Shown one piece after another: positions 8,197-15,438 of a DNA stretch of 24,000 nucleotides. A program made the position numbers and the translations under genes. Positions within the stretch are counted from its first letter, which is position 1; the number at the start of each line of letters is the position of its first letter. Source of the DNA: Crenobacter caeni (GTDB lineage Bacteria; Pseudomonadota; Gammaproteobacteria; Burkholderiales; Chromobacteriaceae); contig NZ_JAAGAA010000015.1 in the NCBI RefSeq assembly GCF_010435965.1, positions 7,842 to 31,841 of the forward strand, read 5' to 3'. The notes beneath the pieces were generated by a model, which saw only the letters and a list, made by a program, of their open reading frames with translations, made no database searches and was not told where the DNA came from.

Positions 8197-8272
8197 TGCT
8201 ATTCGAATTGCGTGGTTCGTATAGTTGACCGCGGTGCCGGGGCTTTCCGGCGTGTGTTTCGGGAGAGATGCC

Positions 8273-8698
8273 ATGAGTTCAAGCTTCACCAAATCGACAG
8301 CACGAAATATTTTCTTCGGCGGAAGTATGTTCTTTTTCCTGCTGTTTCTCGCTTTGAGTTACGACACCGTTCAAGCCATTCCCAAGCAAAGTCCGAAAGC
8401 AGTCATGACCGAACAGGTTGCGTTGGGGAAGCGGGTGTGGGAGGTCAATAACTGCATCGGCTGCCATACCTTGCTGGGCGAGGGCGCATATTTTGCGCCC
8501 GAACTTGGCAACGTCTACCAGCGGCGCGGCCCCGAGTTCATCAAGGCTTGGATTCAGGCACAGCCGACCAATGCACCGGGTCGCCGCCAGATGCCGCAGT
8601 TCCATCTGAGCCAGGAAGAGCTTGATGCGGTCGTTGCCTTCCTCAAGTACAGCTCCGAGATCAATACCAACAACTGGCCGCCGAACATCGAGGGCTGA
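8273..8698 (+). CDS. norC: nitric oxide reductase subunit C (membrane-anchored mono-heme cytochrome c)
   Basis: ATG at 8273 with GGGAGAG at 8261-8267. The protein has an N-terminal TM helix, then ...VWEVNNCIGCHTLLGEGAYFAPELGNV..., which contains CxxCH. norB follows directly. Confidence 0.92.
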   Translation: MSSSFTKSTARNIFFGGSMFFFLLFLALSYDTVQAIPKQSPKAVMTEQVALGKRVWEVNNCIGCHTLLGEGAYFAPELGNVYQRRGPEFIKAWIQAQPTNAPGRRQMPQFHLSQEELDAVVAFLKYSSEINTNNWPPNIEG

Positions 8699-8727: not shown

Positions 8728-10176
<1,449 letters not shown>

Positions 10177-10195
10177 CGAAGCGCTGACCTTGTCC

Positions 10196-10795
10196 GTGCC
10201 GGTGCACGGACAAGGCCGGGGTGATCGTTTAACGCCCGGCGAGCGATCCCTGTCGGGCGATCTGGCCATGTGGGGACTGATCGTCGCTGAGTTGGCCGTT
10301 TTTGGACTGCTGTTTTTTGCCTATGCCTGGCAGCGGCGCAGCCACGCCGAAGCGTACGCGACAGCACAGGCGACGCTGGCGTTGTGGCCGGCGCTCGTAG
10401 GGACGCTGGGCTTGCTCACTGGCAGCTTCGGTGTCGCGCTGGCCGTGCACGCCTGGTCACAGGGCTGGCACGCGCTGGCGCGCGCGGCGCTTTATCTTGG
10501 CATCGTGTCTGGTGCGGTCTTTATCCTGCTCAAGGGCGCTGACCTGCTGTCGCTTGGCGGTCGGGGCATCAGCCTGTCAAGCGGGGGGTTCTGGACGTTC
10601 TATCTTTTTCTGACTGGCTTTCACTACCTGCACGTGCTGCTGGGCTGGGGCTTACTACTGGTTGTAGCCTGGCGTGCCCGGCGCGGACGCTACGACCACG
10701 GCGACTATTCAGGCGTCGAAACGGTCGCCGCCTATTGGCACATGGTCGACCTGGTCTGGGTTGTCTTGTTCGCACTAATCTATGTCGCACGTTGA
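10196..10795 (+). CDS. norE: NorE, cytochrome c oxidase subunit III-like accessory protein of NO reductase (start uncertain)
   Basis: COX3-family signature (...FWTFYLFLTGFHYLHVLLG...VETVAAYWHMVDLVWVVLFALIYV). The frame is open from 10127. In-frame TTG 10190, GTG 10196 and GTG 10202 lie after the norB stop; I cannot choose among them. Confidence 0.75.
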   Translation: MPVHGQGRGDRLTPGERSLSGDLAMWGLIVAELAVFGLLFFAYAWQRRSHAEAYATAQATLALWPALVGTLGLLTGSFGVALAVHAWSQGWHALARAALYLGIVSGAVFILLKGADLLSLGGRGISLSSGGFWTFYLFLTGFHYLHVLLGWGLLLVVAWRARRGRYDHGDYSGVETVAAYWHMVDLVWVVLFALIYVAR

Positions 10796-10832
10796 TCCGC
10801 GCGTGTCCGATGCTGTCGGCCAGGGGAAAAAA

Positions 10833-11093
10833 ATGGAATCGAAACCTCGGCTGGATTTTCCGCTGTTAAGGCTGATCGTGGTGTTGCTGTTGCTGCTGGG
10901 CTTGTCGCTGGTTCAGGCAGGCGGCGAGCGCGAAGCCTGGCCGATGTCTGTTTTTATGCTTTTTGCCTGGCTCAAGGGCGCGCTGATCGCCGAGTACTTC
11001 ATGGCGCTGGCGTGGGCGCCGTGGGTGTGGCGGCTGCTGATCCACGTCTGGCTGCTGCTGGTTTGTGCCGGGCTTGCCCTGAGCTTCTTCTGA
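10833..11093 (+). CDS. small two/three-TM membrane protein, NorF/NirP-like (prokaryotic cytochrome oxidase subunit IV-like)
   Basis: Hydrophobic ORF containing WLKGALIAEYFMAL, which resembles the K..L....FM.L motif of bacterial subunit IV-like proteins. It sits after norE, as in norEF pairs. The ATG at 10833 has AGGGGA upstream. An alternative ATG at 10782 overlaps the norE stop. Confidence 0.5.
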   Translation: MESKPRLDFPLLRLIVVLLLLLGLSLVQAGGEREAWPMSVFMLFAWLKGALIAEYFMALAWAPWVWRLLIHVWLLLVCAGLALSFF

Positions 11094-11400
11094 GAAATAA
11101 CCGTCAACTACCCCGCCCTGAAGGGCGGAACTTGCTAACCGCGAGCTAGGTTGACCAGGGCGAGCGGATTTCCGAATCCGCTACGTGTGCAACAGGTCGT
11201 TAAGACTTACCAAGGGATGCTTCCTCAGTCCCTTGCTCTAAAAGGATTCGATCATGCTGGCGAAAGGTAAAGCGCCGAAGGTTGTTTCCGCCGCAAAAGC
11301 GGGAGCCGGTTGCGGACATGCCCGAGGAGAGCGAGGCGAAAGCCTCTGTCACAAGGCGCGTAAGCGCAAGATTTAGGAGTAATACGCAGTGAGCGTGTTT
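11094..11400 (+). ncRNA. candidate IscB omega-RNA (HEARO-type RNA); exact 5'/3' ends unknown
   Basis: About 295 nt of non-coding sequence lies immediately 5' of iscB on the same strand, where the omega-RNA lies in characterised IscB loci. It is dense in GC stems. Examples: 11113-11128; 11163-11182 (AGCGGATT-tccg-AATCCGCT); 11211-11235 (CAAGGGA-N11-TCCCTTG); 11333-11346 (GAGGC-GAAA-GCCTC); 11356-11367 (GCGC-GTAA-GCGC); and long-range GTCAAC 11103-11108 with GTTGAC 11150-11155. Confidence 0.6.
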
Positions 11401-12717
11401 GTACTCGATAAACGCAAAAAGCCGCTGATGCCGTGTTCGGAGAAACGCGCCCGCAAGCTGCTGGATGCAGGCCGGGCGGTGGTGGTTCGCGTCGTGCCGT
11501 TCACCATCCGGCTGAAAGACCGCGTGGGCGGGGAAGTCCAGCCGCTTCAGGTCAAACTCGATCCCGGCAGCAAAACCACCGGCATCGCGTTGGTGCGCGT
11601 AGAGGACGAGGCTGATCCTGAAAGCGGAGAGATGCGTCGCACTGTCCATCCGCTGTGGCTCGGCCACTTGCAACATCGCGGCGCAGCCATTCGGGAGGCG
11701 TTGCAGGCGCGACGCGCCTTGCGCCGCCGTCGCCGCAGTCAAAACCTGCGCCATCGTGCGCCACGGTTCGACAATCGCACCAGACCGGAAGGCTGGCTTG
11801 CACCCTCGCTACGGCATCGGCTGGAAACCACGCTGTCGTGGGTGCAACGGCTGTGCCGCTGGACGCCGGTTTCCGCGCTCGCTGTTGAGCGCGTGAGGTT
11901 CGACATGCAGGCGATGCAAAACCCCGAGATTACCGGCGTCGAATACCAGCAAGGCACGCTGCACGGGTACACCGTGCGCGAATACTTGCTGGAAAAATTC
12001 CAGCGCCAGTGCGCGTACTGCGATGCCTCGGACGTTTCCCTGCAAGTCGAGCATGTCCAGCCGCGTGCGCTGGGCGGATCGGATCGCGTCAGCAACCTCG
12101 CACTGGCTTGTCCGCCGTGCAACCAGAAGAAGGCTGCACAGCCGGTCGAAGTATTCCTGGCGAAGCAGCCGGAACGACTGGCCAAGCTGCGCCGGCAACT
12201 GAAGACCCCGTTGCACGACGCGGCTGCGGTCAACAGCACGCGCAATGCCATCGTGCAGGTGTTGCGGAAATCCGGCCTGCCCGTTGAGGCATCGGACGGT
12301 GGCAGAACGAAATACAATCGCCTCGCGCTGTCCGTACCCAAGATATATGCGCTGGATGCAGCCTGTGTCGGCAGAGTTGATGCGATTGGACTCTGGCAGC
12401 GCCCAGTGCTGGGAATCAAAGCCACCGGACGCGGCAGCTACCAGCGCACGCGACTGGATGGTTCGGGTTTCCCGCGTGGCTACCTCACCCGCAGCAAATG
12501 GCATTACGGCTTCCAGACCGGCGACCGGATACGGGCAGAAGTACAGACTGGCAAGAAAGCCGGTTCGTACACGGGGCGTGCGGCAGTTCGCGCCACCGGA
12601 AGTTTCAACATCCAGATTGCCGGTCAGCCGGCTGTACAAGGAATCAACCATCGGCATTGCCGGCTGATCCAGCGTGCGGACGGCTACGGTTACGCTTTTC
12701 AACCAAAGGCTGCTTAG
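11389..12717 (+). CDS. iscB: IscB, RNA-guided RuvC/HNH endonuclease (OMEGA system effector, Cas9 ancestor; RRXRR/HNH family)
   Basis: GTG start at 11389 with AGGAG at 11373-11377. Motifs: PLMP (KPLMPC, aa 11-16); RuvC-I KLDPGSKTTGIAL (D58); Arg-rich bridge helix RRALRRRRRSQNLRHRAPRFDNRTRPEGWL; RuvC-II AVERVRFD (E167). The HNH insert is CAYC...VEHVQP...SNLALACPPCNQKK (C208, C211, H222, N236, C241, C244). RuvC-III-like PKIYALDAACVG follows. The C-terminus GFQTGDRIRA...GSYTGRAAVRATGSFNI is TID-like. Confidence 0.9.
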   Translation: MSVFVLDKRKKPLMPCSEKRARKLLDAGRAVVVRVVPFTIRLKDRVGGEVQPLQVKLDPGSKTTGIALVRVEDEADPESGEMRRTVHPLWLGHLQHRGAAIREALQARRALRRRRRSQNLRHRAPRFDNRTRPEGWLAPSLRHRLETTLSWVQRLCRWTPVSALAVERVRFDMQAMQNPEITGVEYQQGTLHGYTVREYLLEKFQRQCAYCDASDVSLQVEHVQPRALGGSDRVSNLALACPPCNQKKAAQPVEVFLAKQPERLAKLRRQLKTPLHDAAAVNSTRNAIVQVLRKSGLPVEASDGGRTKYNRLALSVPKIYALDAACVGRVDAIGLWQRPVLGIKATGRGSYQRTRLDGSGFPRGYLTRSKWHYGFQTGDRIRAEVQTGKKAGSYTGRAAVRATGSFNIQIAGQPAVQGINHRHCRLIQRADGYGYAFQPKAA

Positions 12718-12752
12718 AGAAAGGAGAGCGGGTACAGGGAGCAGTCCAGCAT

Positions 12753-12800
12753 CGACGCCTGAGGCGTCGGCGCTATCCCTCCCCGGCATGAATGCCGGGG
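12753..12800 (+). repeat. two hairpins in the right-end region of the IscB element
   Basis: CGACGCC-tga-GGCGTCG (12753-12769) and CCCCGGCA-tgaa-TGCCGGGG (12781-12800). Neither is followed by a T-run, so they do not look like intrinsic terminators. The second is homologous to the hairpin at 7161-7178. Confidence 0.6.
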
Positions 12801-12816
12801 CTTCCCGCGCAAACTG

Positions 12817-13617
12817 ATGAATGCATTGCTTGAAATAATCCCGGCGCCGCCTTTTTACCAGAGTGTCGGTCGCGAGTGCGAGGTCTTTACTGCAGCATTC
12901 GAGGCGCGGCTGCCGGTACTGATCAAGGGGCCGACCGGTTGCGGAAAAACCCGTTTCGTCAGCCACATGGCCGAGCAGCTGGGGCTGACGCTGCATACCG
13001 TTGCCTGCCATGATGACCTGACCGCGGCCGACCTGGTCGGGCGGCACTTGATCACTGGCGGCGACACGGTCTGGGTTGACGGCCCGCTGACCCGTGCCGT
13101 GCGCAGCGGTGGTATCTGTTACCTTGACGAAGTGGTCGAGGCACGCAAGGACACGACGGTGGTCCTGCACCCGCTGACCGACGACCGGCGGATCCTGCCG
13201 ATCGAGCGCACGGGCGAGTTGTTGCACGCGCATCCTGACTTCATGCTGGTGGTGTCGTACAACCCCGGCTACCAGCATGTGCTGAAGACGCTCAAACCGT
13301 CGACGCGGCAACGTTTTGTCGCGTTGTCGTTCAATTTTGCCAGCCCCGAACTCGAGCGATCGGTACTGGTGACCGAGACCGGACTGGACGCCGGGCGCGC
13401 CGCCAGCCTGGTTACGCTCGCCGGACAAATCCGCCGCCTTGCCGGCGTCGACCTTGAAGAAGCTGTCAGCACCCGTTTGCTGGTCTACGCCGCGCGGTTG
13501 ATGGTCGCCGGCATGGACGAACGTGTCGCCTGCCGCGCCGCGCTGGTCGAGCCGCTGAGTGACGAGGAAGACACGCTCGCCGCCCTTGAGACCATCATCG
13601 CCGCCCAGTTCGGTTAA
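12817..13617 (+). CDS. norQ: NorQ/NirQ (CbbQ/MoxR-type AAA+ ATPase) NO reductase maturation factor
   Basis: Walker A PVLIKGPTGCGKTRFV and Walker B ICYLDEVVEA. The protein is 266 aa and norD follows. The ATG at 12817 has no SD and lies inside sequence homologous to the second right-end copy. Confidence 0.9.
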   Translation: MNALLEIIPAPPFYQSVGRECEVFTAAFEARLPVLIKGPTGCGKTRFVSHMAEQLGLTLHTVACHDDLTAADLVGRHLITGGDTVWVDGPLTRAVRSGGICYLDEVVEARKDTTVVLHPLTDDRRILPIERTGELLHAHPDFMLVVSYNPGYQHVLKTLKPSTRQRFVALSFNFASPELERSVLVTETGLDAGRAASLVTLAGQIRRLAGVDLEEAVSTRLLVYAARLMVAGMDERVACRAALVEPLSDEEDTLAALETIIAAQFG

Positions 13618-13626
13618 GGAGTCGCA

Positions 13627-15438
13627 GTGGAAGATACCGTCGGTAAGTGGTGGGACCGCCTGATCCGGCGAGTCGCGCGGCGTAGCTACCCACAAGCGGC
13701 GGTGACGCTGGAACAGGTCGAGCGGCTGGCACCCGTATTTTTTCGTGCATTGGGCGGTAGCAGCGCGCTGACGCTCAAGAGTGCCGTGGGCAGTCAGCAC
13801 GGCGCGCGGCGACGGTTTATCGAGCGTATTGCCGGTATCGGTGAGCGCGCCGAATTCGCCTGGGCCGATGACCATTCGTTTTTCCTGCCGGCGACCATGG
13901 ACGCGTTTGCTTCGCCGGACCTGAACCGTGACGTCTACCTGTGGCTGATCGCCTTGCTGGCGTTCGACGGTGGCGAGGCGTCGTGGTTCGAGCGCAACGT
14001 GCTGGCCAGCCGGCGCGTGTTAGCCGCGCTGCCGGGCTTTGTGCCGCTTTACCGGCGCTTGGTCGCCGCGCACCTGGCCCAGCGTGCGCCAGCGCCAGCG
14101 CCGGCCGCCGCTTTTGAGCACGCGCTGCGCCGGCAACTGACTGACACTGCGGCCGCCCTGGCCTGGTCCGGCCCGGTGCCGGCGCACGAGCCGGTGCCGC
14201 TCTGGTTGCACCCGTCAGCACCGGCCGAAGGTGCCGCCGCTGCGCCTAGGTCGGCACAGGACAACGCCGGTGGTAAAAGCCAGGACGGCAAACGCCGCCG
14301 GCGTTACCGGACGCGCCGTGAAACGCCGGACGAGCGGTGCAACGGCATGCTTCTGGTATTCCGTGCCGAGAGCATTTTCACCTGGGACGAGTACGTAAAA
14401 GTCAATCGACACCAGGACGAGGACGACGGCGACAGCTGCGCCAGCGCCGCCGAGGACATGGATCGGCTGACGCTGGCGGACGGCACGACCAAAGCCGGAC
14501 GCTTGCGCTTCGACCTTGACCTGCCCGCGGCCGCCTACGATGACACGCCGCTTGGCCCCGGCATCCTGTTGCCGGAGTGGCACTGGCGGCAGCAAAGGCT
14601 GGTGCCGGCACACTGCCACCTAAAACCGATGTACCCGGCCAGCGTGGTGGCACAGCCGCTGCCGGAGCATTTGCGCCGGACGGCACGCAGCCTGCGGCGC
14701 CAGTTTCAGGCACTGGCGCCTGAGCGGCAGCGGCGCAGTGGTGAAATGGACGGGCCGCAGATCGACCTTGACCGGCTGATTGCGTTTTTGAGCGAGCGCC
14801 GGCACGGCAATGTCAACGCCGAACCGGCGCTGTACCAGGCGTGGCCGCGTGCTGCGCGCTCGCTGGCATGCCTGACGCTGGCCGATTTGTCGTTGTCCAC
14901 CGAGAGTTGGGCGGGGAGTGCCGGGCGGGTAATCGACGTGATCCGCGATAGCCTGCTGCTGTTTGGCGAAGCACTCGACGCGTGCGGCGACGCGTTTGGC
15001 GTCTACGGCTTTTCCTCGATCCGGCGCAGTGAAGTGCGCTACCTGCTGCTTAAGGACTTCAGCGGCCCGTGGGATGACCTGGCGCGCGGCCGCATCATGG
15101 CGCTGCGGCCGGGCTACTACACCCGGCTGGGTGCCGCCATTCGCCATTCGGCTTCCATCCTGGCCGGCCAGCCGGCAGCGCGCAAACTGCTGTTGATCTT
15201 GTCTGACGGCAAGCCGAACGACCTGGACCATTACGAAGGCCGCTACGGCATCGAGGACACGCGCCAGGCTGTGCTCGAAGCGCGCCGTGCCGGGCTGGTG
15301 CCGTTTTGCGTTACCGTCGACGCCGAGGGGAGCGAGTATCTGCCGCACCTGTTCGGTGCCAACGGCTACGTCGTCGTCACGGACCCACGTCGGCTGCCTG
15401 CGGTGCTGACCCGGCTGTACAGCACGCTGACGCGCTAG
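13627..15438 (+). CDS. norD: NorD, von Willebrand factor A-domain NO reductase activation protein
   Basis: GTG at 13627 with AAGGAG at 13615-13620. The protein is 603 aa with a C-terminal VWA domain (...LLLILSDGKPNDLDHYEGRYGIEDTRQAV...VPFCVTVD...). It pairs with norQ. Confidence 0.9.
   Translation: MEDTVGKWWDRLIRRVARRSYPQAAVTLEQVERLAPVFFRALGGSSALTLKSAVGSQHGARRRFIERIAGIGERAEFAWADDHSFFLPATMDAFASPDLNRDVYLWLIALLAFDGGEASWFERNVLASRRVLAALPGFVPLYRRLVAAHLAQRAPAPAPAAAFEHALRRQLTDTAAALAWSGPVPAHEPVPLWLHPSAPAEGAAAAPRSAQDNAGGKSQDGKRRRRYRTRRETPDERCNGMLLVFRAESIFTWDEYVKVNRHQDEDDGDSCASAAEDMDRLTLADGTTKAGRLRFDLDLPAAAYDDTPLGPGILLPEWHWRQQRLVPAHCHLKPMYPASVVAQPLPEHLRRTARSLRRQFQALAPERQRRSGEMDGPQIDLDRLIAFLSERRHGNVNAEPALYQAWPRAARSLACLTLADLSLSTESWAGSAGRVIDVIRDSLLLFGEALDACGDAFGVYGFSSIRRSEVRYLLLKDFSGPWDDLARGRIMALRPGYYTRLGAAIRHSASILAGQPAARKLLLILSDGKPNDLDHYEGRYGIEDTRQAVLEARRAGLVPFCVTVDAEGSEYLPHLFGANGYVVVTDPRRLPAVLTRLYSTLTR

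Follow-up and report, generated by a model that had tools for sequence, protein, structure and literature searches.

The 24,000-nt stretch of Crenobacter caeni DNA analysed in this study (referred to as the window) contains a nor gene cluster arranged in the order norC-B-E-F-Q-D, whose features are listed in Table 1. The cluster is located in a denitrification context, with nirS and haem-d1 genes downstream, and genes encoding NsrR, ScdA, NnrS and ChrA upstream. The same norC-B-E-F-Q-D synteny is also seen in relatives, and the NorQ protein of the window is 100% identical to a protein of Crenobacter caeni (P0001). As listed, the norB and norE-like genes overlap by 50 nt (10127-10176), and the norE-like and norF-like genes by 14 nt (10782-10795). 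In relatives these are separate genes with gaps of 50-110 nt, and the GTG start listed for the norE-like gene is probably located too far upstream.

Table 1. Features of the nor locus and of the IscB element inserted in it (positions are those of the window).
Feature	Position	Strand	Basis or remarks
norC	8225-8698		
norB	8746-10176		
norE, COX3-like	10127-10795		
norF-like gene, COX4_pro family	10782-11093	+	Pfam, 34.2 bits; likely source of read-through
Predicted omega-RNA guide, 16 nt, CTTCTGAGAAATAACC	11087-11102	+	host sequence outside the element; boundary between 11102 and 11103
Whole non-autonomous ISC (IscB) element, 1,714 bp, 5'-GTCAAC ... ACTG-3'	11103-12816	+	blastn, end alignments, in silico excision
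Omega-RNA scaffold according to Rfam HEARO (RF02033)	11103-11337	+	covariance model, full length
3' extension of the scaffold, two terminal hairpins (11333-11346, GAAA loop; 11356-11367, GTAA loop)	11324-11368	+	covariation; partly outside the Rfam model
iscB, GTG start, 442 aa, AGGAG Shine-Dalgarno sequence upstream	11389-12717	+	NCBIfam, Pfam and PDB matches
Subterminal hairpins (12748-12774; 12781-12800), TAM-proximal end	12748-12800	+	inverted repeats; presumed binding sites of a Y1 transposase
ATGA(A) target site, presumed TAM, host sequence (start codon of norQ)	12817-12821	+	end alignments
norQ	12817-13617		
norD	13627-15438		

The norF-like gene and norQ are separated by an insertion that contains an iscB gene. 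The product of this gene matches NCBIfam NF040563 (guided_IscB, RNA-guided endonuclease IscB) with 430.2 bits against a cutoff of 175, the Pfam families RRXRR (242.7 bits) and HNH (42.7 bits), and IscB chains of the PDB, including OgeuIscB. It is composed of (i) a PLMP motif (residues 12-15), (ii) an RRXRR/bridge helix region, (iii) a split RuvC domain, (iv) an HNH domain and (v) a C-terminal domain. This protein is absent from a database of 5.8 billion proteins, in which the best match was 85%, and from the gene-position index. Unlike IscB, the NorQ of the same species is present in the protein database at 100%. Possibly the source annotation treats iscB as a pseudogene or does not call it at all.

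A scan restricted to one genome per species yielded 80 related IscB loci (44-86% protein identity), which originate from Proteobacteria, Nitrospirae, Firmicutes, Chloroflexi, Verrucomicrobia and others. Comparison of the region 10500-13500 with these loci by blastn revealed that similarity begins at 11100-11103 and stops at 12820-12823 in dozens of unrelated genomes. In alignments of the ends, each copy starts with GTCAAC and finishes with a G directly followed by ATGA(A), and the sequences outside are unrelated between loci. Conservation begins abruptly at GTCAAC (position 11103) in all 39 loci aligned on this side, the preceding 40 nt being unrelated, and ATGA is located directly after the element in 37 of 38 loci. 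These sharp shared ends with unrelated flanks indicate that the 5' edge of the RNA scaffold described below is the end of a transposon, and that the host sequence immediately preceding this edge constitutes the guide. The initial annotation had assigned the guide to the left end of the transposon; in TnpA-centred nomenclature this is the right end.

In place of terminal inverted repeats the element contains subterminal imperfect hairpins, and no target-site duplication is present around it. In the end alignment, compensatory changes preserve the subterminal hairpin; the hairpins at 11113-11128 and 12781-12800 are both GC stems with TGAA loops. Subterminal hairpins have been described in ISC elements, and empty sites have shown that proteobacterial and cyanobacterial ISC elements have a 5'-GTCA terminus and insert at N/ATGA, where the slash marks the junction (Kapitonov 2016, PMC4810608). 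No gene for a TnpA (Y1) transposase was found in the element or anywhere else in the 24-kb window.

The target site could be compared with uninterrupted norC-B-E-F-Q-D clusters of relatives, in which the norF-norQ spacers have 11 nt (L083, a metagenome) and 9 nt (L084, Pseudogulbenkiania subflava). In these orthologues NorQ begins with ATGAAC (MNA) at the same place. In silico deletion of 11103-12816 generated the junction ...TTCTTCTGAgaaataacc/ATGAATGCA..., which restores a norF-norQ spacer of 9 nt. The reconstructed site matches the uninterrupted junction of P. subflava (...TTCCTGTGAgagaacgcc/ATGAACGCA...), in which NorQ likewise starts with MNA. The unoccupied nor site that the initial annotation had envisaged is thus recreated by this in silico excision. 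The NorQ of Crenobacter luteus (L081) was also considered as an empty-site comparator, and was dropped since it occurs in a different context, with no norCBEF genes upstream.

The element is therefore inserted, without target-site duplication, immediately 5' of an ATGA that constitutes the start codon of norQ. On the basis of the conserved insertion motif, this ATGA is presumed to be the TAM of the window's IscB, and the predicted scarless joint after excision would be ...GAAATAACC/ATGAAT. The start of P0001 (263 aa) is placed at TTG 12826, and the orthologues begin with MNA at the ATG adjoining the element (12817), so the annotated norQ start looks three codons late.

The stop codon of the norF-like gene (11091-11093) and the GTG of iscB (11389) are separated by 295 nt, as the initial annotation had counted. 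It had proposed that this gap encodes a HEARO-like omega-RNA, transcribed in the same direction as iscB and ending near its start codon, and had suggested a covariance-model search with RF02033, an accession that proved to be the correct one for HEARO. This model matches positions 11103-11337 of the plus strand over its entire length (model positions 1-211 of 211) with 93.7 bits against a gathering score of 83 (E=2.9e-18), and is the sole Rfam match of the entire window at gathering thresholds. It also matches all 19 related loci that were tested, with 87-121 bits. The scaffold ends at approximately 11368 and is followed by a bona fide iscB gene on the same strand, so that the omega-RNA is co-oriented with iscB and located directly upstream of it.

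The individual stems that had been noted in the gap (11113-11128, 11163-11182, 11211-11235 and the two hairpins with GNRA-type GAAA and GTAA loops) all lie within the conserved structure. The long-range pairing of GTCAAC (11103-11108) with GTTGAC (11150-11155) corresponds to the outermost, first helix of the Rfam consensus and to helix 1 of our alignment; the first three stems correspond to the inner hairpins of HEARO. A single-sequence fold reproduces the long-range pairing and these three hairpins. Its z-score is a modest -2.4, and the case for an RNA is thus carried by comparative evidence.

For this purpose, 39 non-redundant upstream regions were aligned, each of which starts 16 nt ahead of the conserved edge and ends just beyond the start codon. 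RNAalifold predicted 61 base pairs, of which 41 show at least one compensatory double change. In the 39 sequences, 96.3% of the cells are paired, compared with 30-48% after displacement of the 3' partners by 1-3 columns. Double changes occur in 341 cells, compared with 89 ± 7 in shuffled alignments, and the observed value was attained by 0 of 500 shuffles on each of five measures. The covariation among homologous iscB upstream regions that the initial annotation had named as a check is thus present. Chance GC-rich stems were rejected as an explanation in view of this result and of the HEARO match above the gathering score.

The covariation is distributed as follows. Helix 1 (GTCAAC/GTTGAC) is nearly invariant, i.e. 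conserved, and hence shows little covariation. Double changes were found in 4 of the 7 pairs of helix 2 (11113-11128; CCGCCCT/AGGGCGG) and in 6 of the 8 pairs of helix 7 (11211-11235); helix 4 corresponds to 11163-11182. Helices 10 and 11 (11333-11346) and helix 12 (11356-11367) covary as well (9 of 12 pairs with double changes), though they are largely outside the Rfam model, beyond whose end the RNA structure extends by about 30 nt. This agrees with the presence of terminal hairpins 1 and 2 in the omega-RNA of OgeuIscB (Kato 2022, PMC9640706), and with the report that RF02033 lacks the downstream structure (Meers et al., bioRxiv 10.1101/2023.03.14.532601). A nexus pseudoknot between CCUC (11223-11226) and GAGG (11324-11327) is sequence-compatible, with 96% of cells paired, although its columns are invariant and a slide of +2 pairs equally well. 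Every helix of the RNA is intact in the window's own sequence.

The statement of the initial annotation that the gap contains no credible ORF stood with respect to coding conservation, but a 40-aa ORF does exist at 11254-11376. An ATG-initiated ORF of 30-50 codons beginning with MLAKGKAPKV is present in many relatives, which could point to a cis-acting leader or a small-protein gene controlling iscB or norQ, instead of a trans-acting guide RNA. However, 9 of the 39 sequences lack the ATG, several are interrupted by stops within 3-21 codons, and indels make the frame diverge after approximately 10 codons. The conserved stretch coincides with a covarying hairpin (helix 8), and the region is fully accounted for by the Rfam model and the solved structures of IscB-omega-RNA complexes. 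The 40-aa ORF was therefore rejected as a real gene, and we give hardly any credence to a leader or small-protein function of this region.

The structured stretch upstream of iscB is the standard guide RNA of IscB (HEARO/omega-RNA) of a small mobile element. Taken as a whole, the region from 11103 to approximately 11368 is, with high confidence, the IscB omega-RNA scaffold at the guide-proximal end of a 1,714-bp non-autonomous ISC element (IS200/IS605 superfamily) located on the ATGA of norQ.

IscB guides have a length of 16-17 nt (Kato 2022, PMC9640706) and are encoded by the flank adjoining the transposon end (Meers et al., bioRxiv 10.1101/2023.03.14.532601). From this published length and from the element boundary, the guide is predicted at about 11087-11102, which also sets the putative 5' end of the RNA. 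The predicted guide covers the TGA stop codon of the norF-like gene and the 9-nt spacer, and its sequence occurs only once in the window, also when up to 3 mismatches are allowed. The range proposed in the initial annotation (11078-11112) was correct as to its location in the norF-like stop region; its extent was too wide and ran 10 nt into the scaffold. Part of the guide and spacer, GAAATAAcC (11093-11102), recurs as GAAATAAtCC (12833-12842) 16 nt into norQ, where it encodes the codons E-I-I-P. This AT-rich 7-mer (GAAATAA) in a GC-rich region is missing from the uninterrupted orthologues, and its repetition is probably due to chance.

A scan of 10600-13000 for sigma-70 promoters and terminators detected no promoter, in line with the initial annotation, and no terminator between the norF-like gene and the element. 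The norF-like gene is co-oriented with the element and ends 9 nt before it; the guide RNA would thus naturally arise by read-through of nor transcription, an origin that is plausible by analogy with related systems. It has been argued that transcription of the IscB guide has to enter the element from outside, and the upstream genes showed a strong preference for the co-oriented arrangement; donor-joint cleavage and transposon retention were demonstrated for elements of such anatomy (Meers et al., bioRxiv 10.1101/2023.03.14.532601).

The mechanism of the element may be outlined from its characterised relatives, as regards transcription and processing of the RNA, RNP formation and homing activity. 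Read-through transcription of the nor operon would yield an RNA whose 5'-terminal 16 nt or so (11087-11102, the stop region of the norF-like gene) could serve as the guide, and the downstream scaffold would bind IscB to form an RNP. If a Y1 transposase (TnpA) acting in trans excised the element, the rejoined site, CTTCTGAGAAATAACC/ATGAAT, would match the guide perfectly and have the presumed TAM, ATGA, directly behind the match. The RNP would be expected to cut this site, after which the element would be restored through recombination with a sister copy.

The catalytic residues of OgeuIscB are D61, E193, H340 and D343 of RuvC, and H247 of HNH (Kato 2022, PMC9640706). In the IscB of the window the HNH residues H222, N236 and N245, as well as the zinc cysteines C208/C211 and C241/C244, are all conserved. 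The RuvC tetrad is incomplete: D58, E167 and D323 are kept, and residue 320 is Tyr (codon TAT, 12346-12348) instead of His, so that the RuvC-III motif K-T-H-A-L-D-A reads K-I-Y-A-L-D-A (window 12343-12348, residues 319-320). At this position His is found in 119 of 120 database relatives, in both closest relatives and in all properly aligned loci. In Cas9, where H983 is the equivalent residue, its substitution destroys or severely impairs RuvC activity, so that the enzyme becomes an HNH nickase. Since the catalytic His corresponding to OgeuIscB H340 is replaced by Tyr, full homing by double-strand breaks is doubtful, and the RNP of the window would probably at best nick the target strand by means of its intact HNH domain. 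H320Y may represent a natural nickase, early decay or a sequencing error. The missing His weakens the claim of a fully active nuclease, not that of homology.

It is possible, though we consider it somewhat doubtful, that the element is a stranded, decaying relic, whose fold is still readable but whose system is dead, with H320Y, no transposase nearby, and fixation in the nor operon. Apart from the replacement of a His kept by 119 of 120 relatives, the substitutions T319I and P217S are atypical of the family, the match to HEARO (93.7 bits) lies in the lower half of the range of the relatives (87-121), TnpA was not found in the 24-kb window, and the IscB protein is missing from the protein database. 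Against decay, the ORF is full-length, and D58, E167, D323, the HNH His and Asn residues, the zinc cysteines and the PLMP motif are intact, as are all RNA helices. The protein departs from highly conserved columns (at least 95%) at 7 positions, compared with 0-7 in close relatives, and the absence of a nearby TnpA is common to most IscB elements (Meers et al., bioRxiv 10.1101/2023.03.14.532601). The gene-wide dN/dS of 0.13-0.15 against the closest relatives points in the same direction, though it mostly reflects the history before any recent inactivation.

Some nuclease-dead relatives of TnpB act as repressors. The single substitution in the catalytic site of an otherwise well-preserved IscB, and the location of the element in a regulated operon, could accordingly be viewed as signs of an RNA-guided DNA binder or nickase co-opted by the host, e.g. 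to regulate or mark the locus. Such domestication is very unlikely: the guide matches only its own flank, with no second target in the window at up to 3 mismatches, the intact HNH means that this IscB is not nuclease-dead, the substitution was observed in one genome only, and ordinary transposon ends are retained.

As an ISC element with its omega-RNA, the insertion may be compared with several known systems. The omega-RNA of OgeuIscB (HEARO RF02033; PDB 7XHT/7UTN; Kato 2022, PMC9640706) has the same position and strand relative to iscB, and a 5' guide located outside the element. Shared structural features include (i) a guide-adaptor hairpin enclosed by a long-range stem, (ii) a long central/nexus stem, (iii) two terminal hairpins and (iv) a hairpin with a CUUCCUC loop that has the potential to pair with a GAGG run further downstream, although in our alignment the columns of this putative pseudoknot are invariant and lend it no support by covariation. 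The scaffold of the window is longer (approximately 266 nt versus 206 nt), the protein shows low identity to OgeuIscB (phmmer E~1e-27, aligned in pieces), and the presumed TAM is ATGA, in contrast to NWRRNA/NNRR of OgeuIscB.

The elements ISC2-1_HM and ISC2-1_MS (Kapitonov, Makarova and Koonin 2016, PMC4810608), described before the omega-RNA was recognized, are likewise non-autonomous, approximately 1.3-1.7 kb in size, and contain IscB only. They have in common with the element of the window the 5'-GTCA terminus, insertion just upstream of ATGA without target-site duplication, and subterminal imperfect hairpins; the copy studied here differs in residing in a Crenobacter-like betaproteobacterium, on a start codon inside a nor operon.

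The system of Meers et al. (bioRxiv 10.1101/2023.03.14.532601) also comprises a flank-encoded guide, a co-oriented upstream gene, and a donor joint composed of the guide match and the TAM, and most of its copies lack a nearby tnpA, as is the case here. There, experiments established an AT-rich TAM and demonstrated nuclease activity and retention, whereas the element of the window is known from its sequence, with the catalytic RuvC His substituted.

The closest relatives are two elements of Craterilacuibacter sp. MAGs (L001 and L002; proteins P0122 and P0123), which share 85-86% protein identity and approximately 83-85% DNA identity over the whole element. They have the same ends and the same GTG start, and their ATGAA targets are also host start codons, of genes with MiaB-like and HisG-like N-termini. 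Unlike the copy of the window, they retain the K-T-H-A-L-D-A RuvC-III motif, and their guides and host loci differ.

ISC transposons, omega-RNA and homing to the donor joint have already been published, and the element is a routine member of this known, curated and structurally characterised system. As an instance it has little significance: the RNA and protein families are curated, structures are solved, the role is published, and standard pipelines would label both parts. It does provide a clean worked example, in which the ends, the guide, the TAM and the ancestral empty site can be read at single-base resolution, of an RNA-guided transposon within a denitrification operon, between nitric-oxide reductase subunit genes and norQ/norD. 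Two features may be of specialist interest, namely the natural RuvC His-to-Tyr variant of IscB and the tendency of the ATGA-targeting clade to occupy start codons.

The latter tendency was analysed in 38 of the related loci. In 28 of them, the ATG of the terminal ATGA opens a reading frame that either comprises at least 80 codons or continues beyond the contig end, with a recognisable N-terminus in some cases, e.g. the MiaB-like MKKVYIKTFGCQMNE in L001. Reconstructed empty sites were also examined under a stricter definition, by which the ORF had to comprise at least 80 codons and to have an in-frame stop no more than 30 codons upstream. Of 25 such sites 11 qualified, compared with 6.1% of the ATGA sites that served as background within these flanks (binomial p≈8e-8), and a co-oriented ORF ends within 90 nt upstream at 12 of the 25 sites. 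The ATGA-targeting IscB clade thus sits on host start codons far above chance.

No statement on a start-codon tendency of ATGA-type IscB was found in the literature searched; it follows readily from the published ATGA target combined with the published bias for co-oriented upstream genes. ATGA has been reported as the TAM of AwaIscB, and ATGA or GTGA next to HEARO was reportedly noted by Weinberg in 2009; neither point was used as evidence in this study. That the clade is specialised to host start codons in co-oriented operons, with the copy of the window perhaps surviving as a RuvC His-to-Tyr target-strand nickase, is a speculative and rather unlikely proposal. If true, host transcription would make the guide RNA and the abutted ATG would stay the start of the gene, so that the insertion would be nearly harmless, and retention might require no more than a nick at the donor joint.

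One of the related loci, in Ectothiorhodospira shaposhnikovii (L013, 4402-4607), contains an ORF that starts from the ATGA of the element and stops after 50 codons. This stop coincides with a bacterial SECIS element (Rfam RF01989, 4549-4607, 66.6 bits); it is therefore probably a selenocysteine codon, which would place the insertion at the start of a selenoprotein gene.
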